Source: Desulfosoma sp. (GTDB lineage Bacteria > Desulfobacterota > Syntrophobacteria > Syntrophobacterales > DSM-9756). From it: a stretch of DNA of 38,482 nt. The notes beneath the pieces are model-generated. The model worked only from the letters and a program-made list of their open reading frames with translations, did no database searches and was not told the origin of the DNA. Position numbers and translations under genes: made by a program. Every line of letters starts with the position of its first letter. Positions within the stretch are counted from its first letter, which is position 1. Positions 7,235 through 32,780 of the stretch are shown piece after piece. The stretch spans positions 1 to 38,482 of the forward strand of contig JBBFKW010000021.1 of NCBI GenBank assembly GCA_037481835.1, in the 5' to 3' direction.

Positions 7235-7326
7235 TGGAGGGGGCAAGGGGAATCGAACCTCCTCCCGGTTGATGAGACCGGGCCGACGGGTTTGCAGCCC
7301 GCGGGGCGCCCAGCGCCGTTGCCCCC
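7235..7326 (-). tRNA. Atypical tRNA-Cys(GCA) with tRNA-Sec-like 8/4 fold (selC*-type)
   Basis: Acceptor GGGGGCAA/TTGCCCCC (8 bp), D-arm GGCGC-TGG-GCGCC, anticodon arm GCGGG-CT GCA AA-CCCGT, variable arm CCCGGT-N7-ACCGGG, T-arm GG(A)GG-TTCGATT-CCCC, discriminator T and encoded CCA. Confidence 0.9.
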
Positions 7327-19942: not shown

Positions 19943-20503
19943 ATGGCGGAAGTCCTGCAAGTCAAACCATGCATGAAAGTCACCATCGATTTCACCCTTA
20001 AAACCACATCGCCCGACGGGGCAGTCACCGAAGCCCCCCCGGGAAGCTGCACCTTCGTCTACGGCGTCGATGTCCAGTATCCTTCGGTGGAGGCGGCGCT
20101 CATGAACAAAAAAGTGGGCGATCGCGTCTCAGTCTATGTCCCTCCGGAAGAAATCTTCGGCCCGTACGACCCCGAACTGGTTCGGGAATTGCCCCGAAGC
20201 GACTACAAGCCCGAACGGCTCAAGCCGGGCCGGATCTACCGGGAAATGCGAAACCGTTCCCTCGTGGAATTCCTCGTAAGGGATGTGCGCGACGACGTCA
20301 TCGTGGCGGACTTCAACCGACCGGGGGCGGGCACCTATGCCGAATTCGTCATCGAGATCAAGAACATTTGTGAAGCGTCCCCGAAAGAATTGCGCCCGTC
20401 CTGCGCCGGTGGCGGAAGCCTGCAGTTTTTCCCAAACGGACGGCCCGTTTCCCAAGGCGCCGCGGGCGGCTCCTGCCAGAAGAGCGCCGCAGATTCGGCT
20501 TGA
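19943..20503 (+). CDS. FKBP-type peptidyl-prolyl cis-trans isomerase, SlyD-like
   Basis: E.AL..KKVGD...V.VPPEE.FG.YDPELV and V.ADFN.P.AG; AAGGAG RBS; no His-rich tail. Confidence 0.8.
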   Translation: MAEVLQVKPCMKVTIDFTLKTTSPDGAVTEAPPGSCTFVYGVDVQYPSVEAALMNKKVGDRVSVYVPPEEIFGPYDPELVRELPRSDYKPERLKPGRIYREMRNRSLVEFLVRDVRDDVIVADFNRPGAGTYAEFVIEIKNICEASPKELRPSCAGGGSLQFFPNGRPVSQGAAGGSCQKSAADSA

Positions 20504-20529
20504 CACCGGTGTATGCCTCCCTGTAAACA
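20500..20529 (+). promoter_or_regulatory. Putative sigma70 promoter of the attenuated operon
   Basis: TTGACA-N18-TAAACA upstream of the leader peptide. Confidence 0.4.
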
Positions 20530-20583
20530 GAAAACGGTATGGGAAAAGAAATACAAGCGAACAAGGCGGGGCACGCAACGGGC

Positions 20584-20658
20584 ATGAACGGCCGAGTATA
20601 TTCAGGTGATTCCTTCTATTACGGCTACGGCTACCTTAGGCGGTCTGCCCGTCGGTGA
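20584..20658 (+). CDS. Tyr/Phe-rich attenuator leader peptide MNGRVYSGDSFYYGYGYLRRSARR
   Basis: 5 Tyr and 1 Phe codons in 24, five of them within FYYGYGY; its 3' end overlaps the antiterminator arm; alternative in-frame ATG at 20539. Confidence 0.8.
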   Translation: MNGRVYSGDSFYYGYGYLRRSARR

Positions 20659-20679
20659 CGCCGACAATCCGCCAAGTCG

Positions 20680-20722
20680 GCCGTGGGCAGACCGCAGCGC
20701 AGGGTTTGCCCACGGCTTTTTT
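20680..20722 (+). terminator. Attenuator terminator 1
   Basis: 14-bp stem GCCGTGGGCAGACC/GGTTTGCCCACGGC (one G-U), 9-nt loop, T6. Confidence 0.85.
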
Positions 20723-20725
20723 GTT

Positions 20726-20759
20726 GGGGTCGTGGGATGTTCCCACGGCCCCTTTTTTT
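20726..20759 (+). terminator. Attenuator terminator 2
   Basis: 12-bp stem GGGGTCGTGGGA/TCCCACGGCCCC (one U-G), 3-nt loop, T7. Confidence 0.85.
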
Positions 20760-20787
20760 GTCACTCTGGGCGTGAGAGGAGGACGGC

Positions 20788-21969
20788 ATGAAAGGGAAGC
20801 ATCGGTGGGTTGTCAGTGTTGTGGGCGTGGTCGCCGTGCTGTTCTGGGCCGCCGGCATTTTTCATCCGGTGAGCGCCAAGGCCGGTAAGGAACCCTACAA
20901 AGTGGGGGCGGTTTTTGCCATCACGGGGACGGCTTCCTTCCTAGGGGAACCGGAAAAGAAGACGGCGGAGATGATCGCCGAGGAAATCAATGCCCAAGGC
21001 GGGATCAACGGGCATCCCTTGCAGCTCATTATCTACGATGACGAAAGCGATGCGACCAAGAGCACCCTGGCGGTCAAGAAGCTCATCAAAACGGATCAGG
21101 TGCCGGTGATCATCGGCCCGACCCAAAGCGACGCCAGCCTGGCCGTCGCTCCCATCGCCGAGGAGGCTCAGGTGCCCCTCATTTCCTGCGCCGCCAGCTA
21201 CAAGATCGTGGAACCCGTCTCGGAACGCCGCTGGGTTTTCAAAGTGGCCGGCTCGGATAAGCACGTGGTGGGCAAGATGTACGATTACATGAAGGCCAAG
21301 GGCATGACCAAGATCGGCATCATGACGGCTTCGACGGGCTTCGGCGCCAGCGGTCGGGAGGAGCTCTTGCGTCTCGCCCCCGAATATGGCATCACCGTGC
21401 TCGCCGACGAACGGTACGGCCCCAAGGATACGGACCTCACCGCCCAGCTGACCAAGATGCGGGAAGCCAAGGTGGAAGCCATCGTCAACTGGTCCGTCGG
21501 GCCGACCCAGGTGCTGGCCGTCAAGGGATGGCGGGATCTCAAGATGGACAACATCCCCCTGTTCCAGAGCCACGGGTTCGGCAATCGTAAGAACATCGAA
21601 CTGGCCGGCGGGGCGGCGGAAGGCGTGTTGTTACCTCTGGCGCGCGTCAACGTGGGACCGCTCCTTCCCGACACGCAGCCGCAGAAAAAGGTGATCATGG
21701 CCTACACCCAGGCGTATGAAAAAAAATACAACGAGCCGGTTTCCTCTTTCGGCGGCCATGCCTGGGATTCCCTGCACCTGGCCGTGGCGGCCCTCAAGGC
21801 CGTGGGGCCGGATCCGGCCAAGATTCGGGACTTCTTGGAAAACACCAAGGGGTTCGTGGGCCAACACGGCATTTTTAACTTTTCGCCCCAAGACCATAAC
21901 GGCTTGAGCAAGGACGACTTGGAAATGGTCGTTGTGAAAAACGGCGACTGGGCCCTCGCCCCCTGGTAA
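20788..21969 (+). CDS. ABC transporter substrate-binding protein, LivK/LivJ fold (likely aromatic acid binding)
   Basis: Signal peptide, KVGAVFAITG.ASFLG, INAQGGING, DTDLTAQLT, FSPQDHNG; AGGAGG RBS; substrate inferred from operon context. Confidence 0.88.
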   Translation: MKGKHRWVVSVVGVVAVLFWAAGIFHPVSAKAGKEPYKVGAVFAITGTASFLGEPEKKTAEMIAEEINAQGGINGHPLQLIIYDDESDATKSTLAVKKLIKTDQVPVIIGPTQSDASLAVAPIAEEAQVPLISCAASYKIVEPVSERRWVFKVAGSDKHVVGKMYDYMKAKGMTKIGIMTASTGFGASGREELLRLAPEYGITVLADERYGPKDTDLTAQLTKMREAKVEAIVNWSVGPTQVLAVKGWRDLKMDNIPLFQSHGFGNRKNIELAGGAAEGVLLPLARVNVGPLLPDTQPQKKVIMAYTQAYEKKYNEPVSSFGGHAWDSLHLAVAALKAVGPDPAKIRDFLENTKGFVGQHGIFNFSPQDHNGLSKDDLEMVVVKNGDWALAPW

Positions 21970-22067
21970 TAGGGACTTTCGGCGGGCGGTGCCGGCGCGA
22001 CGAAATGGCCCTGAGCCGCACGCGCGGCGCCGCCGCCGAACACGCACAGGGAAGGACACGCGTTTCC

Positions 22068-22970
22068 ATGACGGATATCTTTTACGGGGCGGCATGGCTC
22101 CAATATGCCTTGAGTGGCCTGACCATCGGGGCCATCTACGCCCTCGTGGCCCTCGGCTACAACATCATCTACAACGTGACGGAAATCATCAATTTCGCCC
22201 AAGGCGAATTTGTCATGCTGGGCGGCCTGTTCGGAGTTTTCTACTATCAAACCTTCGGCCTCCCCCTCGGGGCGGCCGTGCTCTGCGCCGTGGCGACGGT
22301 GGGCCTCGTCGGCCTGCTCCTGGAACGCTACATCATTCGCCGGGCCAGGCACGTTACGGTCCTTTCCATGATCATCGTCACCATCGCCTTTTCCATCCTG
22401 CTCAAAGGCGGTGCCATGTTGGCTTGGGGTAAGGATCCCTATCGATTGCCGGCCTTCAGCCGAACCGGCGCGTTTCTGTGGCAGGGCGTGGCGGTGCAGC
22501 CTCAAGCATTGTGGGTCTTGGGGATCAGCGCCGTTGTCGTGGGGGTGCTCACGGTCTTTTTTCGCACATCCTTTTACGGGAAAGCCATGCTGGCCTGTGC
22601 GGACAATGCCGACGCCGCCCGTCTGGTGGGGATTCCGGTACGCACCATGGTGCTTTTATCCTTCGGGTTGAGCGCCGCCGTGGGAGCCGTGGCCGGTGTG
22701 GCCATCTGCCCCATCACCCTCATGGAATACGATCGCGGTGCCCTTTTGGGACTCAAGGGCTTCGGAGCCGCCGTGCTCGGCGGCTTGGGCCAGTTCTACG
22801 GGGCCCTCGTGGCCGGCATTGTCCTGGGATTGGCCGAATCCCTGTGTGCCGGCTACATCTCTTCGGGGTATAAGGACGCCGTTGCCCTCGTCCTTCTCAT
22901 GCTGGCCCTGTTTTTCAAGCCGGAAGGCCTTTTCGGAAGCAAGGAAGCCGCCGGGCTCAAGAGGTTCTGA
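22068..22970 (+). CDS. LivH-family ABC permease
   Basis: GAIYALVALGY.IIY..T.IINFAQGEF, LKGF.AAVLGGLG. Confidence 0.9.
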   Translation: MTDIFYGAAWLQYALSGLTIGAIYALVALGYNIIYNVTEIINFAQGEFVMLGGLFGVFYYQTFGLPLGAAVLCAVATVGLVGLLLERYIIRRARHVTVLSMIIVTIAFSILLKGGAMLAWGKDPYRLPAFSRTGAFLWQGVAVQPQALWVLGISAVVVGVLTVFFRTSFYGKAMLACADNADAARLVGIPVRTMVLLSFGLSAAVGAVAGVAICPITLMEYDRGALLGLKGFGAAVLGGLGQFYGALVAGIVLGLAESLCAGYISSGYKDAVALVLLMLALFFKPEGLFGSKEAAGLKRF

Positions 22971-22975
22971 GCGCC

Positions 22976-23959
22976 ATGACATTTCGTGAAAAGATAGGAT
23001 TTCTCGCCCTGACGGTTTTCCTGGCGGTGTTTCCCTGGATTTCCGGGGTGTCCCGGTCCTTCGGCCATTACATCGATGTCATGATTTTCGCCGGCATTTT
23101 CTGCATGGTGACCCTCGGGTTAAGCCTCCTCATGGGCTTTGCGGGGCAGATTTCCTTGGCTCAGGCCGCCTTTTTCGGCATCGGCGCCTACGGCTCGGGG
23201 ATCCTTGCGGGCCACTTCCACTGGAACCCTTGGGCGGCAATGCTCGCCTCGGCCGGGGCGGCCGCCGCGGTGGCCTGGATCGTGGGAGTTCCGGCCTTGC
23301 GGCTCAAAGGCCATTATCTGGCCATGGCTACCCTTGGCTTTGGGGTCATCGTACACATCGTGATGAACGAAGAAGTGGACTGGACCGGCGGCCCTTCGGG
23401 TCTTGGGGGCATCCCGGGGATGAGTCTTGCCGGCCGAAAAATCTCTGGGGATGCCGCTTGGTTCTACCTGGTCTGGGCGTTTGTCCTGGCGGCCTTCCTC
23501 TTCTCCCGCCATGTCCTCCATTCCCGCATCGGGCGGGCTCTGCGGGCCATCCACGACGACGAAAAGGCTGCGGAAGCCATGGGTGTGCCCGTCTCGACCC
23601 TCAAGGTGCAGGTGTTCGTCACCAGCGCCGTTCTGGCGTCCATCGCGGGAAGTCTTTACGCCCATTATGTCTCCTTCCTTTCTCCGGGCTCCTTCGACCT
23701 CATGTGGTCCGTGAGGTTCGTCCTCATGGTCGTGGTCGGCGGCATGCAGAGCCTCTGGGGTGCCTTGGTGGGTACGGTGCTTTTGACCTTTATCGGCAAC
23801 GAGTGGCTCCAGGTCTTTGCCGATTTTGAAATCCTGGTCTACGGGGGCATCCTTCTGGTCATGGCCCTTTTTGTCCCTCAAGGGCTGGTGGTCTGGCTGG
23901 ACGCCGCTTTGCGCGGCAAGGCCCGCCCCGTGCCGACCCCTTCGGATCGCGGGTCGTGA
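22976..23959 (+). CDS. LivM-family ABC permease
   Basis: LLMGFAGQISL.QAAFFGIGAY, LRLKGHYLAMATL, GRALRAI. Confidence 0.9.
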   Translation: MTFREKIGFLALTVFLAVFPWISGVSRSFGHYIDVMIFAGIFCMVTLGLSLLMGFAGQISLAQAAFFGIGAYGSGILAGHFHWNPWAAMLASAGAAAAVAWIVGVPALRLKGHYLAMATLGFGVIVHIVMNEEVDWTGGPSGLGGIPGMSLAGRKISGDAAWFYLVWAFVLAAFLFSRHVLHSRIGRALRAIHDDEKAAEAMGVPVSTLKVQVFVTSAVLASIAGSLYAHYVSFLSPGSFDLMWSVRFVLMVVVGGMQSLWGALVGTVLLTFIGNEWLQVFADFEILVYGGILLVMALFVPQGLVVWLDAALRGKARPVPTPSDRGS

Positions 23960-23962
23960 ACC

Positions 23963-24811
23963 ATGGGTGAGCGTGCCGTGCTCCATGCCGATCCCGTTCT
24001 CGAGCTCCACGACGTGCGCATGCACTTCGGCGGGGTGGTGGCTCTCAAAGGCGTTTCCGCCAGCATTCCTCGAGGGATCATCCAGTCCGTGATCGGGCCC
24101 AACGGCGCCGGGAAGACGACTCTGCTCAACTGTATCAGCGGTCTACTCACGCCTTCTTCCGGCGCCGTGTTGTTCCAGGGGGAAGCCGTCCAAGGAAAGC
24201 CCCCGCATGAAATCGCCCGCCGTGGTTTGTCCCGCACCTTTCAGCATGTGGCCCTCTTCCCGCGCATGAGCGCCCTGGAAAACGTCATGGTGGGGCGCCA
24301 CGCACGGACCCGCGCCGGTTTTTGGGCGTCTGGGTTTCGGCTTCCCTTCATGCGCCGCGAGGAAGCCCGAATCCGCACGGACGCCCAAGCCTGGCTGGAT
24401 TTCGTGGGGCTCGGCGCGCAACGCGACCTGCCCGCCGGAGCCCTCCCCTTGGGCAAGCAGAAAATTTTGGAAATCGCCCGGGCCTTGGCGACGGATCCCG
24501 TTTTGATCCTCTTGGATGAGCCTGCCGGCGGCCTCAATACGCGGGAAACGGAAGAACTGGGGGAGCTGCTCAAGAAAATCCAAGAAAGAGGGGTGACCGT
24601 CGTTTTGGTGGAACACGATATGAACCTGGTCATGGACATTTCAGACCGGGTCCTGGTGCTCCACTTCGGTCAGGTGCTCGCCTGCGGCTCTCCGGCGGAA
24701 ATCAAAGACAATCCCGACGTGATCCAAGCCTATCTCGGCGAAGACTGGGGAGATGGAGGCGGCGGGGCGCCCCGGCGCTCGGGAGAATCGGAGGTGGATC
24801 AAGGACGGTGA
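23963..24811 (+). CDS. LivG-family ABC ATP-binding protein
   Basis: FGGVVAL, GPNGAGKTT, RTFQ, LEIARALA, DEPAGGLN, VEHDM, AYLG. Confidence 0.9.
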   Translation: MGERAVLHADPVLELHDVRMHFGGVVALKGVSASIPRGIIQSVIGPNGAGKTTLLNCISGLLTPSSGAVLFQGEAVQGKPPHEIARRGLSRTFQHVALFPRMSALENVMVGRHARTRAGFWASGFRLPFMRREEARIRTDAQAWLDFVGLGAQRDLPAGALPLGKQKILEIARALATDPVLILLDEPAGGLNTRETEELGELLKKIQERGVTVVLVEHDMNLVMDISDRVLVLHFGQVLACGSPAEIKDNPDVIQAYLGEDWGDGGGGAPRRSGESEVDQGR

Positions 24812-24899
24812 AGGGCCGTGATTTCAGTAAAAGAGCGCTTTCGGGCGAACTCACCCCGAAGGGTTTGGTGTTGACGAGGCTTGCTAAGAATACCGTGCT

Positions 24900-25631
24900 G
24901 TGCTGACCGTTAAAAGCCTCCACGCCTACTACGGCAATATCCACGCACTCAAAGGGGTTTCGCTCCACGTGCGCTCGGGAGAAATCGTCACCCTGATCGG
25001 CGCCAACGGAGCGGGCAAGACCACTTTGGTCCACAGCATCTGCGGGCTCGTCAAACCCGCCAGAGGCTCCATCCTGTTCGAAGAAAGTGATTTGAGTCGG
25101 CTCACCCCGGAAGCCATCGTCCGGCGGGGCATCTCTTTGGTCCCCGAAGGGCGCCAAATTTTCGCCACACTTTCCGTGGAAGCCAACCTGGAAATGGGGG
25201 CCTTCATCCATCGCAAGGATCGCCAAGGGTGGCGCCGGGACATGGACGAGCTCCTGGAGCGATTTCCCGTGCTCCGGCAGAGGCGGCGCCAGCTTGCGGG
25301 AACGCTTAGCGGCGGAGAACAACAGATGCTCGCCATCTGCCGGGCCCTCATGGCCAGACCTCGATTTCTCCTGCTCGATGAACCGTCCATGGGACTGGCC
25401 CCCTTGATTGTCCGAGAAATCTTCGACATTATCCTTGAGCTGCGACGTGAGGGGCGCACCATCCTGCTCATCGAACAGAACGCACGCGCGGCCTTGCAGA
25501 TCGCGGACCGCGGCTATGTGCTGGAAACCGGCAAAATCGTGCTCCAGGGCGAAGGCCGGGATCTTTTGGCCCACCGGGAAGTCCAGAGGGCGTACTTGGG
25601 CAAGGGGGCCAAACCCATTTGGGATGCCTAG
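24900..25631 (+). CDS. LivF-family ABC ATP-binding protein
   Basis: GANGAGKTT, VPEGRQIF, LSGGEQQMLAI, DEPSMGLAP, EQNA, YVLETG; GTG start. Confidence 0.9.
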   Translation: MLTVKSLHAYYGNIHALKGVSLHVRSGEIVTLIGANGAGKTTLVHSICGLVKPARGSILFEESDLSRLTPEAIVRRGISLVPEGRQIFATLSVEANLEMGAFIHRKDRQGWRRDMDELLERFPVLRQRRRQLAGTLSGGEQQMLAICRALMARPRFLLLDEPSMGLAPLIVREIFDIILELRREGRTILLIEQNARAALQIADRGYVLETGKIVLQGEGRDLLAHREVQRAYLGKGAKPIWDA

Positions 25632-25684
25632 GGACAGGATGTCTCTTGGGAATGGTGCAAGGAACATCCGTTGAGGGTGCCGCC

Positions 25685-27010
25685 ATGAAACCGGAAGGGG
25701 TTTCGATCTGGGAACCGGAAAAAGAATGCCTGGGTGTCGAGGAGCTTCGTCAACTGCAGCTGGAGCGGCTCCAGGCGACCCTGAACCGGGTGGATCGCCA
25801 TGTGGCGTTCTACCGCAAGATGTTCCGGGAGATCGGCTTCGTGCCGGAAAACGACCTGGGAGACCTGGACGACTTGAAAAGGCTCCCCTTCACGACCCGA
25901 GACGATGTGAGTAACAGCTATCCCTACGAGATGTTCGCCGTTCCTCTGAGGGAGGTGGTTAGGGTCCATTCGTCTTCCGGAACATCCGTGAACCCCAGAG
26001 TTGTGGGCTACACCAAGCGGGATCTCAAGAACTGGGCCCAACTGGTGGCGCGCATCCTGGCCTCCGCCGGACTGACCCACGACGACGTGATCCAGGTGAC
26101 CTTCGCCTACGGGCTGCTGACCGGCGGCCTGGGCATCCACTACGGCGCGGAACGTCTGGGGGCGTCGGTCCTGCCCACCTCGGTCGGGCGCACCGAACGG
26201 CAGATCAAGATCATGCAGGACTTTCGCACGACCGCCCTCGTGTGCACCCCGTCCTACGCCCTTATTATCGCAGACAAGATGGAGCAACTGGGGGTGGATC
26301 CCAAGCGGCTCAGCCTGCGCCACGCCGTCTGTGCCGGAGAACCCTGGACGGAAGCCATGCGCTCGGAAATCCAAGAAAGACTGTTCGTCACCGCAACGGA
26401 CAACTACGGGATCAGCGAGGTCATGGGCCCCGGGGTGGCCGGGGAATGCCTGGAACAGAGCGGCATGCACGTCCAGGAAGACCATTTCCTCGTGGAAATC
26501 GTCGATCCGGCGACAGGGGCGCCGTGTGAACCCGGCGCGCTGGGAGAACTGGTCATCACAACGCTGACCAAGGAAGCCTTCCCGGTCATTCGCTACCGCA
26601 CGGGCGACCTGGCGCGGCTCATCGAGGCCCCCTGTCCCTGCGGCCGCACCTTCCGGCGCATCTCGCGCATCGAAGGCCGTTGCGACGACGTGGTGGTCAT
26701 CAAGGGGATCAACATCATCCCGGAACGCATCGGGGACGTGTTGGAACAAGTCAAAGGGGAAAGACCCACCTACCAGGTGGTGGTCACCCGCCAGGGCAAT
26801 TTGGACCAGTTGGAAATCTGGATTGAAGTGACGGAAAAGCTCTTTTTCGACAAAATGCGGGAACAGCGCACCCTTGTGGATGAGATGCGCCAGAAAGTGG
26901 CCAACTTCATTGGAATCGTCCCGCGCATCAAGCTGGTGGAAAGAGGTTCTTTGGAGCGAATCAACGGGAAAGTGAAACCCTTTGTGGATCTACGACGCCC
27001 ATGGCACTGA
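25685..27010 (+). CDS. paaK: Phenylacetate-CoA ligase family (arylacetate-CoA ligase)
   Basis: LQLERLQ, LPFTT, HSSSGT, YGLLTGGLG.HYGAE, TPSYAL, GEPW, DNYG.SE..GPGV..EC, RYRTGD. Confidence 0.9.
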   Translation: MKPEGVSIWEPEKECLGVEELRQLQLERLQATLNRVDRHVAFYRKMFREIGFVPENDLGDLDDLKRLPFTTRDDVSNSYPYEMFAVPLREVVRVHSSSGTSVNPRVVGYTKRDLKNWAQLVARILASAGLTHDDVIQVTFAYGLLTGGLGIHYGAERLGASVLPTSVGRTERQIKIMQDFRTTALVCTPSYALIIADKMEQLGVDPKRLSLRHAVCAGEPWTEAMRSEIQERLFVTATDNYGISEVMGPGVAGECLEQSGMHVQEDHFLVEIVDPATGAPCEPGALGELVITTLTKEAFPVIRYRTGDLARLIEAPCPCGRTFRRISRIEGRCDDVVVIKGINIIPERIGDVLEQVKGERPTYQVVVTRQGNLDQLEIWIEVTEKLFFDKMREQRTLVDEMRQKVANFIGIVPRIKLVERGSLERINGKVKPFVDLRRPWH

Positions 27011-27027
27011 CAGGGAGGATGGCCGAC

Positions 27028-28887
27028 ATGCATGAACTGCTCACCGGGACTCGAGGCGAAAAGAAATTCCTTCTCGGCAACGAAGCCATCATCCGCGGGG
27101 CTTTGGAATCCGGGGTGCGCTTCGTGGCTGCCTACCCCGGAACGCCCTCGTCGGAAATTATCGACGGCTTCGCCGCTTTGGGCCCGGACATCGGGGCGGA
27201 AGTGGAATATTCGGTCAACGAAAAAGTATCCGTGGAATCGGCCTGTGCGGCGGCCCAGTGCGGAGTGCGCAGCCTCTGCGCCATGAAGCACGTGGGCCTG
27301 AATGTCGCCTCCGACGCCTTCATGACCCTAGCCTACGTGGGCGTCAAGGCCGGTATGGTCATCGTCTCCGCCGACGATCCGTCGCTCCATTCCAGCCAGA
27401 ACGAACAGGACAACCGCTATTATGCAAAAATGGCGGGCGTGCCCATGCTGGAGCCGGCAACGCCGCAAGAAGCCAAGGACATGATCGCAGCCGGCTACAC
27501 TCTGTCCGAAAAGCACGGCATGCCCGTTCTCGTGCGCACGACGACGCGGGTCAACCACTGCCGAGGGCCGGTGTCCTTGGAAGACATTCCCGAAGGGACC
27601 GTCAAGGGGACCTTTTCGCGAGACCCTTTCAACCTGGTTGTCGTGCCCATGGTGGGCCGAAAGCTGCACCTGAAGCTCTTGGAAAAGTTGAGCGCCCTGC
27701 GTGAGGAAGCGGAAAAGAGCCCGTTCACCACGGAAGAGGGACAAGGCCCGTGGGGGATCGTCACCAGCGGGGTGTCCGCCCTCTATGTGTCCGATGCGGT
27801 CCAGGAACTGGAGCTGGCGGATCGGGTGCGGGTCCTGAAATTGGGCATGACCCATCCTTTTCCGGAAACGCTCGTGGCGGATTTTCTCGGCCGCGTGGAA
27901 TCCGTCCTTGTGGTGGAGGAGCTGGAACCGTTCCTGGAAGAGGCTGTGCGCATTGCAGCGCAGAAAAGCGGGTTTCCGGGAAGGATTGCGGGCAAGGAGT
28001 TCGTCCCGAGAGCGTTCGAACTGGATACGGTGAAGGTCAAAGAGGCCGTCAGCCGCTTTTTCGGCGTAGCCTACGAGCCGCCCACGATCTTCACCGTACC
28101 GGAAAACCTTCCGGCCCGCCCCCCCAACCTGTGCCCGGGATGCCCCCATCGGGCCACGTTTTACAGCGTCAAGAAGGTGTTCGGTGAAGAGGCCGTCTAC
28201 CCGACGGATATCGGCTGCTACACCCTGGGGCTCCTACCGCCGCTCCAGATGGCCGATTTCCTCATTTGCATGGGATCGAGCATTTCCACGGCCGGAGGGT
28301 TCAGCCGGGTTCTGGACCGCCCCGTGGTGGCCTTCATCGGAGATTCCACCTTTTTCCACAGCGGCATTACGGGCCTGATCAACGCCGTGGCCCACGATCG
28401 CACTCTCCTCTTGGTCCTCTTGGACAACGGCACAACGGCCATGACGGGCCATCAGCCCCATCCCGGCGTGCGCCTGGGACGGCAAGGACCCCAGGAGCCC
28501 AAAGTGGATGTGGAAACCCTCGTGCGGGGCTGCGGCGTGCGCACGGTGGCCGTGGTCAATCCCCTTCAGGTGAAAAAAACGCAGCAGGTCCTGCGGGACA
28601 TCAAAGCCGGCATGAAAGACGGCGGAGTTTCGGTACTCATCAGCCGCTCGCCGTGCCCTCTTTTTGAACGCCGCATGCTCGGCACCAAGCAGAAAGTGGT
28701 CTTTTCCGTGAGCGGCGACTGTAGTCCCTGTCGGGACGATCTGGCACAGCTCGGATGTCCCGCCTTCGTCTGGTCCAAGGACGAAGCGGGTTCACCGTGT
28801 GTTCGGATCAACGAAGTGTTGTGCAGCGGGTGTTCGGTGTGCGCCCAATTGTGCGACGGGATCAAACCAAAAAAGCTTTCGGCATAA
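27028..28887 (+). CDS. iorA: Indolepyruvate:ferredoxin oxidoreductase alpha subunit
   Basis: LLGNEAI.RGA, YPGTPSSEI, MKHVGLNVA.D, SSQNEQD.R, RPPNLCPGCPHR, DIGCY, IGDSTFFHSG, DN.TTAMTGHQP, C-terminal ferredoxin; GGAGG RBS. Confidence 0.95.
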   Translation: MHELLTGTRGEKKFLLGNEAIIRGALESGVRFVAAYPGTPSSEIIDGFAALGPDIGAEVEYSVNEKVSVESACAAAQCGVRSLCAMKHVGLNVASDAFMTLAYVGVKAGMVIVSADDPSLHSSQNEQDNRYYAKMAGVPMLEPATPQEAKDMIAAGYTLSEKHGMPVLVRTTTRVNHCRGPVSLEDIPEGTVKGTFSRDPFNLVVVPMVGRKLHLKLLEKLSALREEAEKSPFTTEEGQGPWGIVTSGVSALYVSDAVQELELADRVRVLKLGMTHPFPETLVADFLGRVESVLVVEELEPFLEEAVRIAAQKSGFPGRIAGKEFVPRAFELDTVKVKEAVSRFFGVAYEPPTIFTVPENLPARPPNLCPGCPHRATFYSVKKVFGEEAVYPTDIGCYTLGLLPPLQMADFLICMGSSISTAGGFSRVLDRPVVAFIGDSTFFHSGITGLINAVAHDRTLLLVLLDNGTTAMTGHQPHPGVRLGRQGPQEPKVDVETLVRGCGVRTVAVVNPLQVKKTQQVLRDIKAGMKDGGVSVLISRSPCPLFERRMLGTKQKVVFSVSGDCSPCRDDLAQLGCPAFVWSKDEAGSPCVRINEVLCSGCSVCAQLCDGIKPKKLSA

Positions 28888-28920
28888 AACGGCCCTGCAC
28901 AAGGGGCGCGTGCGGTGACA

Positions 28921-29601
28921 ATGATTTTTGAAAGAGAGATTCGGGGTCCGGCCCCAAGACGACACGGGACGACGGAGGACGCGGTGGAAAGACGTCACGA
29001 GGAAGCGCGCCGACGGGGCGTGCGCCTTTTCTTTACGGGAGTGGGAGGACAGGGAACGCTTGTGGCAACCCGATTGGTGGGGGAGGCGGCCTTGGCGGAA
29101 GGGCTTTCGGCTTCCATGAGTGAAATCCACGGCATGGCCCAGCGGGGCGGGGTGGTGGAGTCATCCGTGGTGGTGGGCGACATCCACGCGCCCATCGTGG
29201 CGGAAGGGCAGGCAGATGTCTTGGTTGCCTTCGAACCCCTGGAAGCACTCAGGGCCTTGAACCGATGCCATGCCCAAACCAAAGCCGTGGTGAGCACCTC
29301 GCCCATCGTGCCCTTCACCGTGGCCGCGGGCCAGGGGACCTACCCGGACGTTGACCGTGTGGTGAAAGAACTCAAGGACAAACTGGCCGCCGTCGTGGCC
29401 TTGGACGCGGAGGCCCTGGCCCTGGAGGCGGGATCCGTGAGAGCGGCCAACATGGTCGTCATGGGGGCCGTGGCCGCCATGGACGTCCTGCCCATTGCCA
29501 AAGCCACGTGGGACGGCTGCCTTCGAAAACTCTTCCCACCCAAGCTCTACGATCTCAACCAAAGAGCCTTCGATAAAGGATACGCGGTCGGCCGGTCCTG
29601 A
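28921..29601 (+). CDS. iorB: Indolepyruvate:ferredoxin oxidoreductase beta subunit
   Basis: GVGGQG, SEIHGMAQRGGVV, AFEPLEALR, AN.V.MGA, N..AF..G; start approximate (GTG 28915 also possible). Confidence 0.93.
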   Translation: MIFEREIRGPAPRRHGTTEDAVERRHEEARRRGVRLFFTGVGGQGTLVATRLVGEAALAEGLSASMSEIHGMAQRGGVVESSVVVGDIHAPIVAEGQADVLVAFEPLEALRALNRCHAQTKAVVSTSPIVPFTVAAGQGTYPDVDRVVKELKDKLAAVVALDAEALALEAGSVRAANMVVMGAVAAMDVLPIAKATWDGCLRKLFPPKLYDLNQRAFDKGYAVGRS

Positions 29602-29955: not shown

Positions 29956-31356
29956 ATGATCATCAGTCACGACCTTCTTGAAAAAACTTGTAAGAACATG
30001 ATCGAGACGATCCTTTTGTGTTTGGATCATGCCACCAAGGGAACCATTTACCGGATCGGGCCCATGCCGGAGCTGCGTTCCGTGCGCGTGACCTCGGGCA
30101 TTCGGGAGCAGGGCAACGGCACCATTCACTGGGGTCTTCCGGCGGTGTCCGATTACAACCCTCCGGGGAAAACCTGGGACCAGTATCGAGACCGCCCCGG
30201 TCGGGCCTTGGAAGCCATGGCGTGGTGTGTGGAGCGCCAAAAGAGCTGGACGGCGGACAATCCCTACGAAGACCAGCGTAGTGTGCGCAAGCAGTTGAGC
30301 GGCGAGCCGGAAGATTGGCATCACATGGAACCCGTGCTCGTCAAAAAGAGCGACCTCTACGGGGACGGGGCCGACGACCTCCAGTATCCGCTCAACTGGA
30401 AGGGCGTGCCCATCTGGCAGGACACGGACTACGTGGTCGTCGCCGTCATCAAGATCCACTTTCTGCCGCACACGATTCAGCGGGGCGATCGGGCCACCAA
30501 GGTGATCAAGAAACTGTCGCGGATCTTGGGCACGGAGATGTTTTCCTTGCACATTCGGGAAACCCTGAGCCAGGTCCAAAGCGAACTCACCCAGGAGCGG
30601 TTCGCGTCCTGTAACGCTCTGGCCCATGAGCTGCGCAACACCTTGATGAAGCTGAGCTTCATCTTTTCGGCCATCAACGCGGAAGTGGGTTTTCTTCGGG
30701 AGCAATGGGAAGAGGAGATCCGGAGGAGCGTCGACGGGCTGGTGGACAAGAGCACACTTCTTCGCCGTCTAAACGAGCTCATCGAAAACCGTCTAGGGCG
30801 CCTCAACGGCCAAGCGGAACTGGGGGCTCTGGGGCGCCATCTTCTCATGGAGCAGCAAGAGTTCCTCGTAACGCCCCTTTTGCCGGAACAGGCGGAAAAT
30901 TGGATCCACATGAAGATCCAGCCCAAATGGCAGCAGCTCTTGTCTCAAAGTTCCGTGTGGGAAGACCAGCGCCGAGAGATCGAAGACATGCTCACGCGGC
31001 TCAAAGAAGCCGTGTGGGTCGGAACCGACCGGGCTGTCGCCGATCGGCTCAAGCACCTTCCCGAAGAGGTGCGCACCCTGTGGCCGCAGCTGGCCTATGT
31101 GGAATTTTCAGCGGACAAACTGCCCCTTTTGGAACAAGTCTTGGCTCTTTTGAACCATCCGGGCATGGATGTGCCGCACAAGAAACACACCCAGAAGGTC
31201 CTTTCCTGCCTCAAAGCCCTGGCGGAAATCATCCCGGACATGGAGACCCGCACGAACCGCATCTTGGATTTCATGCGCAACGGTTCGGAAAAGGGACTTC
31301 AGGATTACTGGCGCCCCTTGATGCGTTCCGGTGAATCCCCGCCTTCGACGGAATAA
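29956..31356 (+). CDS. Hypothetical cytoplasmic protein with HisKA-like H-box
   Basis: 466-aa ORF; LAHELRNTL in a helical region; no N/G1/F/G2 ATPase boxes recognised. Confidence 0.75.
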   Translation: MIISHDLLEKTCKNMIETILLCLDHATKGTIYRIGPMPELRSVRVTSGIREQGNGTIHWGLPAVSDYNPPGKTWDQYRDRPGRALEAMAWCVERQKSWTADNPYEDQRSVRKQLSGEPEDWHHMEPVLVKKSDLYGDGADDLQYPLNWKGVPIWQDTDYVVVAVIKIHFLPHTIQRGDRATKVIKKLSRILGTEMFSLHIRETLSQVQSELTQERFASCNALAHELRNTLMKLSFIFSAINAEVGFLREQWEEEIRRSVDGLVDKSTLLRRLNELIENRLGRLNGQAELGALGRHLLMEQQEFLVTPLLPEQAENWIHMKIQPKWQQLLSQSSVWEDQRREIEDMLTRLKEAVWVGTDRAVADRLKHLPEEVRTLWPQLAYVEFSADKLPLLEQVLALLNHPGMDVPHKKHTQKVLSCLKALAEIIPDMETRTNRILDFMRNGSEKGLQDYWRPLMRSGESPPSTE

Positions 31357-31379: not shown

Positions 31380-32780
31380 TCAGCCTTTCGAAGCCTTGCT
31401 CGTTTCAGCCAGCGCGGCCAACATCCTTGACAGCTCCCTCATCTTCGCCTCTCCCATCACATCCGGCTGCAGGGAGACGAAGTAGCCGGGGCCTTCTTCC
31501 ATGACCCTTCGGGACGCGCCCTGATTATCCAGGCCGAGGCACTCGTAGATATGCACGGGCTGATGAAGGCCTTTAAGCGACATGGGGCCGAGGTCTCGGG
31601 CGTGGATCTTTTCCGCGATGAGGGCGTAGGTGGCTCGGCTGATGAGCATCTGGCCCGGTTCAGCGATTTGTTGGAGCCGGGCGGCGACGTTCACCTGGGA
31701 GCCGATGGCCGTGTAGTTGAGCCAGCGGTCGGAACCGAACGTGCCCACCACAGAAAGGCCCGTATGCGCGCCCATGCGCACTTGGAGGGAGTGCGGCAGG
31801 CCTTTGTGCTCCCATTTGTGGTTGAGCTCCTTGAGCTTGGCTTGCATGGCCACGGCCATCTGCACGCATCGGTATGCCCCTTCGGCCGGGTCCATGTCGT
31901 CCGGAGCTCCGAAAAGGACCATGATTCCGTCCCCCATGAGTTTGTCCAGAGTGCCTTTGTACTGCAGGACCACCGGAATCATTTCGTGGAAGTATTCGTT
32001 CAACTGTTCGGCCATCTCCTCGGGTTCCATGGTGTCGGTGAGGGTGCTGAAACGGCAGATGTCCGAAAAAAAGATGGTGATTTTTTTGCGGCTGTGCCCG
32101 AAGAGGGCTCGGCCTTCGTCCTTGGAAAGATGCCGCACCAGGGGGTCGCTCACAAAAAGAGAGAGTTTTTCGTTGAGACGGGTGATTTCGCGATCCTTTT
32201 CCCGGAGTTGGGCAACGGATTCTTTGAGGTGGGCTTTTTGAGAGGCGAACCGGTCCAGGAGGGCGGCGAGAAACACGCAGACGGCCAGGAAGGCGCCCAC
32301 ACGCACGGCTTCGCGCACGTAGTCGGGATGATCCCCGTGCATGCGACTCATGACGACGAGGATCCCCAAGTAGAGAAGCATGTAGTAGCAGGCGGTCAGA
32401 AGAACACAGCGAAAGCGCACATGGCCGGCAAGGAAGAAAAAGCCCATGAGCCAGCCGATGAGCATGAGGTCGCGGGCGGTGCCTACGGCATAAAAGCCGT
32501 AGGCGGCCACCGGGGCGAAGAAAAACCAATTGGGAATGAGCACGAAGTGGGGGTCGAAGCGAAACCGGGTGTCCCATCCCACGAGGACCATGGCCCATCC
32601 GATGCCGTGGGCGAGGGTCGCCGCTGCAACGAATACGGCCAGCTGGTGCGGGGTAATGTCGCTGTAGCCGAGTTTTTTCAGGAGCAAAATGGTGCCTGAG
32701 GCGACGAGCCATCCCAGGTAACCAAGCCACAATGCGCCGAGTTTTCTCGATCGTGCCTTGTCGGATGGGAGGCTTTCCAT
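31380..32780 (-). CDS. Membrane-bound class III adenylate cyclase
   Basis: About 6 TM helices, coiled coil, FFSDI..FS, LDKLMGDGIM, YTAIG..VN.AARL (Lys/Thr specificity residues indicate ATP). Confidence 0.92.
   Translation of the reverse strand: MESLPSDKARSRKLGALWLGYLGWLVASGTILLLKKLGYSDITPHQLAVFVAAATLAHGIGWAMVLVGWDTRFRFDPHFVLIPNWFFFAPVAAYGFYAVGTARDLMLIGWLMGFFFLAGHVRFRCVLLTACYYMLLYLGILVVMSRMHGDHPDYVREAVRVGAFLAVCVFLAALLDRFASQKAHLKESVAQLREKDREITRLNEKLSLFVSDPLVRHLSKDEGRALFGHSRKKITIFFSDICRFSTLTDTMEPEEMAEQLNEYFHEMIPVVLQYKGTLDKLMGDGIMVLFGAPDDMDPAEGAYRCVQMAVAMQAKLKELNHKWEHKGLPHSLQVRMGAHTGLSVVGTFGSDRWLNYTAIGSQVNVAARLQQIAEPGQMLISRATYALIAEKIHARDLGPMSLKGLHQPVHIYECLGLDNQGASRRVMEEGPGYFVSLQPDVMGEAKMRELSRMLAALAETSKASKG

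Follow-up and report, generated by a model that had tools for sequence, protein, structure and literature searches.

A probable tyrosine-sensing attenuator with two interlocking terminator-like hairpins before a transporter-paaK-iorAB operon of Desulfosoma, and its relatives in the phylum

We analysed a stretch of 38,482 nucleotides from Desulfosoma sp., referred to throughout as the window, and found on its forward strand a leader region followed by genes for a livKHMGF-like ABC transporter, a phenylacetate-CoA ligase-like enzyme of the paaK family, and the iorA and iorB components of an indolepyruvate/arylpyruvate ferredoxin oxidoreductase (Table 1). The iorA product scores above its cut-off (TIGR03336, 729 against 651) and that of iorB just under (TIGR03334, 197 against 206). 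The closest solved relatives of the transporter's LivK-like binding protein are unnamed ligand-binding receptors, several of which presumably bind aromatic acids. The first start codon lies only 28 nt beyond the U-run of the second of two hairpins in the leader, and upstream of the leader we place a candidate promoter, whose -35 motif recurs 108-172 nt 5' of the antiterminator arm in 21 of 23 aligned orthologous loci, followed by a TA-rich box about 17-19 nt further on; a consensus promoter scanner at its thresholds reported no promoter upstream of the leader. The ORF preceding it (19943-20503), whose stop codon overlaps the -35 hexamer, gave no NCBIfam or Pfam match at the thresholds used, and it probably resembles FKBP-type isomerases. 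Elsewhere in the window, a tRNA-Sec gene on the minus strand (7239-7326, RF01852) is the only Rfam match at gathering score, and two convergent ORFs of 466 codons each (29956-31356 and 31380-32780) have no NCBIfam match at E 1e-10, the former being also without a Pfam match.

Table 1. Features of the leader and its operon in the window, and related leaders elsewhere in the genome
Feature	Position	Strand	Basis
Candidate promoter: consensus -35 at 20500-05, weak -10-like box at 20524-29	20500-20529	+	predicted from conservation
Leader-peptide ORF, 24 codons	20584-20658	+	ORF reading; translation presumed
Regulatory codons F-Y-Y-G-Y-G-Y (1 Phe and 4 Tyr in 7)	20614-20634	+	sequence
Segment B (arm A), antiterminator arm within the ORF end; partner 20683-95	20640-20652	+	pairing, covariation
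Inner hairpin 20660-65/20676-81, prolonging the B:C helix	20660-20681	+	folding; weakly conserved
Hairpin T1: C 20679-93, loop, D 20703-17, U-run 20717-22	20679-20722	+	sequence, covariation
Terminator T2: E 20726-37, F 20741-52, U-run 20753-59	20726-20759	+	sequence, terminator scan
Ribosome-binding site of the first structural gene (start 20788)	20777-20783	+	sequence
livK-H-M-G-F-like ABC transporter, five genes	20788-25631	+	NCBIfam, all under the named Liv-family curated cut-offs
Phenylacetate-CoA ligase-like gene (paaK family)	25619-27010	+	TIGR02155, E 7.9e-148, 492 bits, cut-off 646
iorA and iorB, indolepyruvate/arylpyruvate ferredoxin oxidoreductase	27001-29601	+	NCBIfam
Tyr leader, livKHMGF-paaK-iorAB operon	this window	+	tandem pair 1 of 5
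Trp leader before aroF-trpEGDCF	G000:C6:80430		tandem pair
Phe/Tyr/Trp leader before aroF and a tyrA/aroB-like gene	G000:C8:71734		tandem pair
Trp leader before a trpB2-like gene	G000:C1:47930		tandem pair
Phe leader before paaK-livKHMGF-paaK	G000:C2:160264		tandem pair
Trp leader with single terminator before a third aryl-acid operon, iorA2B2-liv-paaK-paaK-livK	G000:C7 ~21150-21330 (L289 353-530)	-	

The leader ORF carries a fifth Tyr codon at 20599 ahead of its regulatory run, and translation could also begin at an in-frame ATG at 20539, which leads into the same Tyr codons. Segment B is at 20640-50 the exact reverse complement of 20685-95, the helix reaching 13 bp (20640-52/20683-95) when two G-U pairs are counted; for comparison, 28 of 3000 random 120-nt windows of the same genome hold a perfect 11-bp inverted repeat. 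The T1 stem comprises 15 bp including two G-U (20679-93/20703-17) and closes a 9-nt loop, and the T2 stem 12 bp (20726-37/20741-52). The two hairpins can also pair with each other, 20709-19 with 20726-36, in a D:E helix of 11 bp, four of them G-U, whose 8-bp core has one. The first U's after D pair with purines ahead of E. The folding z-score of the leader region is -3.16. The original prediction, made from the sequence alone, had described the Tyr-rich ORF with its FYYGYGY run, the tandem hairpins with their U-runs and the complementarity of the T1 3' arm to the T2 5' arm, and all of these are present on re-reading, T1 beginning at 20679; its perfect complement of arm A also stands, but does not lie wholly within the T1 5' arm as it had been placed, positions 20694-95 belonging to the T1 loop. 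Rfam returned no family at gathering score for the leader locus, only sub-threshold sRNA matches, and a T-box or riboswitch was rejected on that result. Translational control through pairing of the T2 U-run with the ribosome-binding site (11 bp, six of them G-U) was set aside as mostly wobble. A matching RNA run (share 0.06) yielded contigs from a relative about 90% alike, which carry neither ends nor strand.

A search with the first gene, which was found in 37 of the 41 genomes of the order, yielded 30 loci, and the leader ORF, arm B and both hairpins are together in 26 of them; the remaining four comprise one lone terminator, two loci with nothing directly upstream and one truncated by a contig end. 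Alignment A1 holds 23 rows, which are kin and hence not independent, and omits L016 (T2 tail decayed), L029 and L030 (long spacer) and the four loci without the element. Among the eight codons before B (184 codons over the 23 rows) we counted 95 Tyr, 10 Phe and no Trp, at least three being Tyr in 20 rows, so that the predicted Tyr dominance of the leader is borne out. A Tyr codon stands 8 nt ahead of B in 21 rows and 14 nt ahead in 22, and both synonymous Tyr codons are in use (54 and 44 times over ten codons), as expected under selection on codons rather than bases. An in-frame start occurs at a similar distance from the arm in the orthologues, most commonly 50-59 nt, and in 21 rows iorA follows the led gene on the same strand at a distance of 6-13 kb. 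Of the helices, B:C is paired in 99.2% of cells with two-sided changes at 4 of 11 pairs, C:D has two-sided changes at 5 of 11, and the seven core pairs of E:F are paired in 100% of cells with two-sided changes at one. The inner hairpin reaches z < -1.5 in only 6 rows, and a conserved inner pause hairpin was dropped as a candidate for that reason. A degenerate pattern scan of genome contigs was loose, 5 of 120 stretches among the matches listed being real copies; the element-bearing records among them are labelled Syntrophobacterales, Syntrophobacteraceae, Desulfobacteraceae and delta proteobacterium.

Several loci depart from the common form. The orthologue L024 (G031) keeps a promoter-like motif and one terminator, but its leader ORF, arm B and T1 are gone. 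L029, L030 and L037 are Phe-rich copies with a B-C spacer of 60-80 nt and a different, longer B:C helix. In L010 and L027 the leader stop codon is directly before B, not after, so that a terminating ribosome would cover B. The regulatory codons are down to one or two Tyr in L019 (G004) and L021 (G032), with the helices intact, and in L021 Cys codons stand in place of Tyr. Finally, L033 (G019:C80:1-3600) has tandem livK copies with an attenuator apiece, six consecutive Tyr codons standing in one and alternating Phe and Tyr in the other, which suggests duplication followed by divergence of the sensed amino acid.

Clustered Tyr codons, a hairpin with the form of an intrinsic terminator, an antiterminator that excludes it and aromatic-related downstream genes, the features by which attenuators are recognised, occur together at this locus. 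We propose, with a probability of roughly 55% for the model as a whole, a ribosome-mediated attenuator that senses charged tRNA-Tyr and acts through a relay on two terminators; that a conserved Tyr-sensing attenuator is present at all is very probable. When tyrosine is low, a ribosome translating the leader would stall at the Tyr codons and leave B free, and B would pair with C before D is made, so that T1 could not form and the polymerase would pass the first U-run. The emerging D would then pair with E, blocking T2 and locking B:C, and the operon would be read. When tyrosine is ample, the ribosome would cover B and C:D would form T1, which may itself terminate; T1 would leave E free for F, and transcription would stop at T1 or at T2.

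Computed folding is in part consistent with this scheme. With a ribosome masked on the Tyr codons, B:C forms once C is made, and B:C together with D:E dominates when E is out, whereas covering B gives T1 and T2. This two-way switch on masking is reproduced in 21 of the 23 rows of A1. Against the scheme, with D just complete and the ribosome stalled, T1 beats B:C at equilibrium in 18 of the 23 rows. The computed energies are -49.3 kcal/mol for the read-through fold, -56.0 kcal/mol for T1 with T2 and -57.0 kcal/mol for B:C with T2, which is the most stable; the read-through fold, 6.7 kcal/mol above the terminated fold, is metastable, and the switch and its relay would therefore have to work kinetically. 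Direct-path barriers were estimated as 16.8 kcal/mol from B:C to T1 and only 8.9 kcal/mol from D:E to T2, compared with 3.2 kcal/mol for unprotected T2. A stall at the last and best-conserved Tyr codon would partly cover B, which leaves the Tyr codons before it as the likely main source of the signal. The attenuator reading of the original prediction, with its conserved upstream ORF, its covarying stems at orthologous operons (26 of 30 loci, with B:C covarying) and its two-way switch on masking, is in this way backed by conservation, covariation and folding alike.

The closest known counterpart is hisL of Salmonella enterica, in which a stall gives B:C with D:E and read-through and fast translation gives the E:F terminator, as outlined in PMC4046918. 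Both leaders have a peptide with a run of sensing codons and a two-step relay of B:C and D:E against C:D and E:F. Unlike in hisL, the sensed amino acid here would be tyrosine, B is inside the ORF, the A:B hairpin, which in the his attenuator gives termination when the leader is untranslated, forms in the Desulfosoma leader but is poorly conserved (z < -1.5 in only 8 of 23 rows), and the middle hairpin repeats the sequence of the terminator and has a U-run to itself. The Rfam His leader gives no match at gathering score at the locus, which has no His codons and no his operon; the leader works like the his attenuator and is not a member of the His leader family. The original prediction had not recognised the architecture as one already characterised; since the relay follows the known his logic (PMC4046918), it is less unfamiliar than had been supposed. 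The relay itself is already known; what differs is that the middle hairpin looks like a second copy of the terminator and carries a U-run.

Among leaders for aromatic amino acids, the four-segment trpL attenuator of E. coli selects between antiterminator and terminator by a stall on aromatic codons. The same choice is described for the likewise four-segment pheL/pheA of E. coli (PMC3082878). These systems have one antiterminator and one terminator, compared with two of each here, and the target here is a transporter and salvage operon. A computational survey of 2010 by Lopatovskaya, Seliverstov and Lyubetsky reportedly covers delta-proteobacteria, and it may already list this leader family. 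Chains of RNA helices are outlined in it, as cited in PMC4833913. The aroF gene of Corynebacterium glutamicum (cg1129) is preceded by a putative Phe-Tyr-Phe leader peptide, which resembles the present leader in having Tyr and Phe codons before aromatic-related genes and governs a DAHP synthase, the passage on it in PMC4046766 describing no tandem terminators. A tandem second terminator with a possible antiterminator has been reported for the rimP leader, which belongs to a ribosome-biogenesis gene of Gammaproteobacteria and for which the relevant passage mentions no leader peptide (Naville and Gautheret 2010, PMC2965389).

T1 and T2 share a 7-nt core, and the cross-pairing of D with E could on that account be a by-product of duplication. 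We compared it with the reciprocal pairing C:F, and in an alignment of 33 rows (231 cells) counted 5 mismatches in C:D, 1 in D:E, 1 in E:F and 20 in C:F. Because this asymmetry is partly explicable by wobble resolution, a position-wise count was added, in which the 16 completed compensations of C:D all spare D:E and none falls at a position where D:E would break, although nine wobble intermediates do occupy such positions; furthermore, the three E changes that would disrupt D:E are each accompanied by a matching change in D. A further 87 loci were retrieved with a model that constrains D and E more tightly than C; in 79 of them the D:E duplex is stronger than C:F, and disruptive E changes are rescued in 14 of 28 cases for D:E against 14 of 79 for C:F. 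The evidence is not one-sided: half of those 28 changes (14) are unrescued, C:F outweighs D:E in 12 of the 33 rows, D:E has no two-sided change in the 23 rows of A1, its covariation over the larger alignment stands out only weakly from shuffles (16-44 of 500), and the loci, being kin, are not independent. Judging from these comparisons of sequence, it is nonetheless highly likely that the D:E relay is under selection, and the predicted pairing between T1 and T2 is supported by the mismatch counts and by compensations that avoid D:E-breaking positions.

The more delicate question is whether T1 terminates as well and would give the tighter shut-off of the original prediction; we consider the chances that it terminates a little better than even. 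In the Desulfosoma sequence T1 has the form of a terminator. Of the 23 rows, 16 have 6 or more U in 8 nt in its U-run and the other 7 have 3-5, while the U-run of T2 is kept, and its 9-nt loop caused T1 to be missed by the terminator scan. This decay and this loop suit the most serious alternative, that the same Tyr attenuator and relay are at work and T2 is the only terminator, C:D being a his-type middle hairpin that serves as protector or pause site; the T1 U-run would then be a relic of duplication, or would serve D:E pairing and pausing, and the pairing of the U's right after D with the purines before E agrees with the latter. The his attenuator likewise has the same topology with one terminator (PMC4046918). 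What tells against that alternative, which we regard as unlikely though well ahead of the others, is that the 87 model matches are about as U-rich after D as after F (at least 6 U in 9 nt in 70 and 68 of 87, respectively, in a model that itself favours U there), and that leaders with a single hairpin and Trp codons use a T1-like hairpin as their sole terminator.

The double hairpin is not confined to this locus, which the original prediction had not seen. Genome-wide, five tandem pairs were found among 569 terminator-like hairpins, and all five stand after aromatic leaders (Table 1); the leader at C6 had been taken as Leu/Val-rich in a wrong frame, and its correct reading is a Trp leader. A covariance model built from the double hairpin alone finds it in all 41 genomes of the order (E 0.05) and in 85 of 150 genomes of the phylum (E 1e-4), with 30 candidates scored per genome. 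Only high-scoring matches were taken, giving 91 loci with 93 matches, of which 88 (87 distinct) remained once five antisense duplicates were removed. At least four aromatic codons in ten precede 86 of the 88, compared with 391 of 2000 random windows, and at least five in ten precede 70 of the 87 distinct matches, compared with 69 of 2000; a B arm was detected in 67 of the 87. The genes that follow encode DAHP synthases, anthranilate synthases, TrpB2-like, PaaK-like and LivK-like proteins, as well as aldolase-family proteins, prephenate dehydrogenase and aminotransferases, labelled by Pfam for 17 and by their N-termini for the rest. Over the 88 matches the codon type tracks the gene type, with Phe at 134 of 166 before paaK and Trp at 38 of 53 before trpB2; the split between the two aroF classes is partly leader-based and so not independent. 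At L272 (G082:C1), a stretch of less than 600 nt holds two divergent double-hairpin leaders, one preceding a trpB2-like gene and the other a DAHP synthase. A literature search, mostly outside subscription journals, found no paper describing a double-hairpin family of aromatic leaders.

The Desulfosoma genome has three related binding-protein genes and two iorA genes. Its third aryl-acid operon, on C7, has a Trp leader that is a three-segment form of the same switch, with B and one T1-like hairpin, and a clear Trp run with one terminator was seen by eye in 7 of 30 orthologous loci, as well as in G009. A B/T1-type unit can thus stand as a whole attenuator. The sister operons with Phe and Trp leaders point to three parallel salvage routes for aryl acids. 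In the present operon, the transporter would import an aryl acid, most likely 4-hydroxyphenylacetate, which would be converted to its CoA ester and by reductive carboxylation to an arylpyruvate, from which tyrosine would be made; a synthetic role agrees with a leader that opens on starvation. In Methanococcus maripaludis, aryl acids enter aromatic amino acids by way of Ior as a second biosynthetic route (cited in PMC4162585), and for Bacteroides an IOR beside an AMP-forming arylacetate-CoA ligase has been proposed to be biosynthetic (PMC13285125). Compared with the Methanococcus route, there are here three paralogous operons, each led for a different aromatic amino acid.

It is improbable that the leader instead senses tyrosine and phenylalanine jointly, or general translation stress, and that the operon imports or degrades the amino acids themselves. 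One Phe codon is present in the Desulfosoma leader and the copies of family f2 are Phe-rich, as joint sensing would have it, but Tyr outnumbers Phe by 95 to 10 in the aligned codons, and the same genome has separate sister operons led by Phe and by Trp. The binding protein is annotated at family level only, and IOR enzymes can be catabolic (PMC13285125); a leader opened by starvation, however, suits synthesis rather than breakdown, and the same source holds that an AMP-forming ligase favours acyl-CoA synthesis. Slightly less probable still is that T1 and T2 are independent terminators from a tandem duplication, B governing T1 only and T2 being a fixed leaky brake or otherwise controlled, a reading in which D:E is an automatic by-product of the resemblance of C to E and of D to F and which has the most stable computed fold (B:C with T2) on its side, but which leaves the unequal decay of the two cross-pairs and the avoidance of D:E-breaking positions unexplained and, with a constitutive 12-bp terminator 28 nt from the gene, would leave little range for control.

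The proposed Tyr-sensing relay on two terminators would widen the range of ribosome-sensed attenuation, both in what is sensed, with a leader that is almost purely Tyr, and in what is controlled, a transporter and salvage operon. It would offer a simple route to a complex switch, in which a terminator is duplicated and the copies are coupled, and coupled terminators predict a wider on/off range from one sensor, which would be usable in the design of RNA switches. More tentatively, with the balance of evidence somewhat short of favouring it, the phylum would hold a family of aromatic attenuators that arose by terminator duplication and were wired through D:E, with both terminators working and repression multiplied, together with three salvage systems. 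If this is true, these systems would be Tyr-led for 4-hydroxyphenylacetate, Phe-led for phenylacetate and Trp-led for indole-3-acetate, and the IOR and ligase paralogues of these anaerobes would run towards synthesis. The leaders also serve as labels: for Liv, PaaK and IOR paralogues, which databases list only as branched-chain transporters or degradation enzymes, they suggest a substrate and a direction that can be tested.
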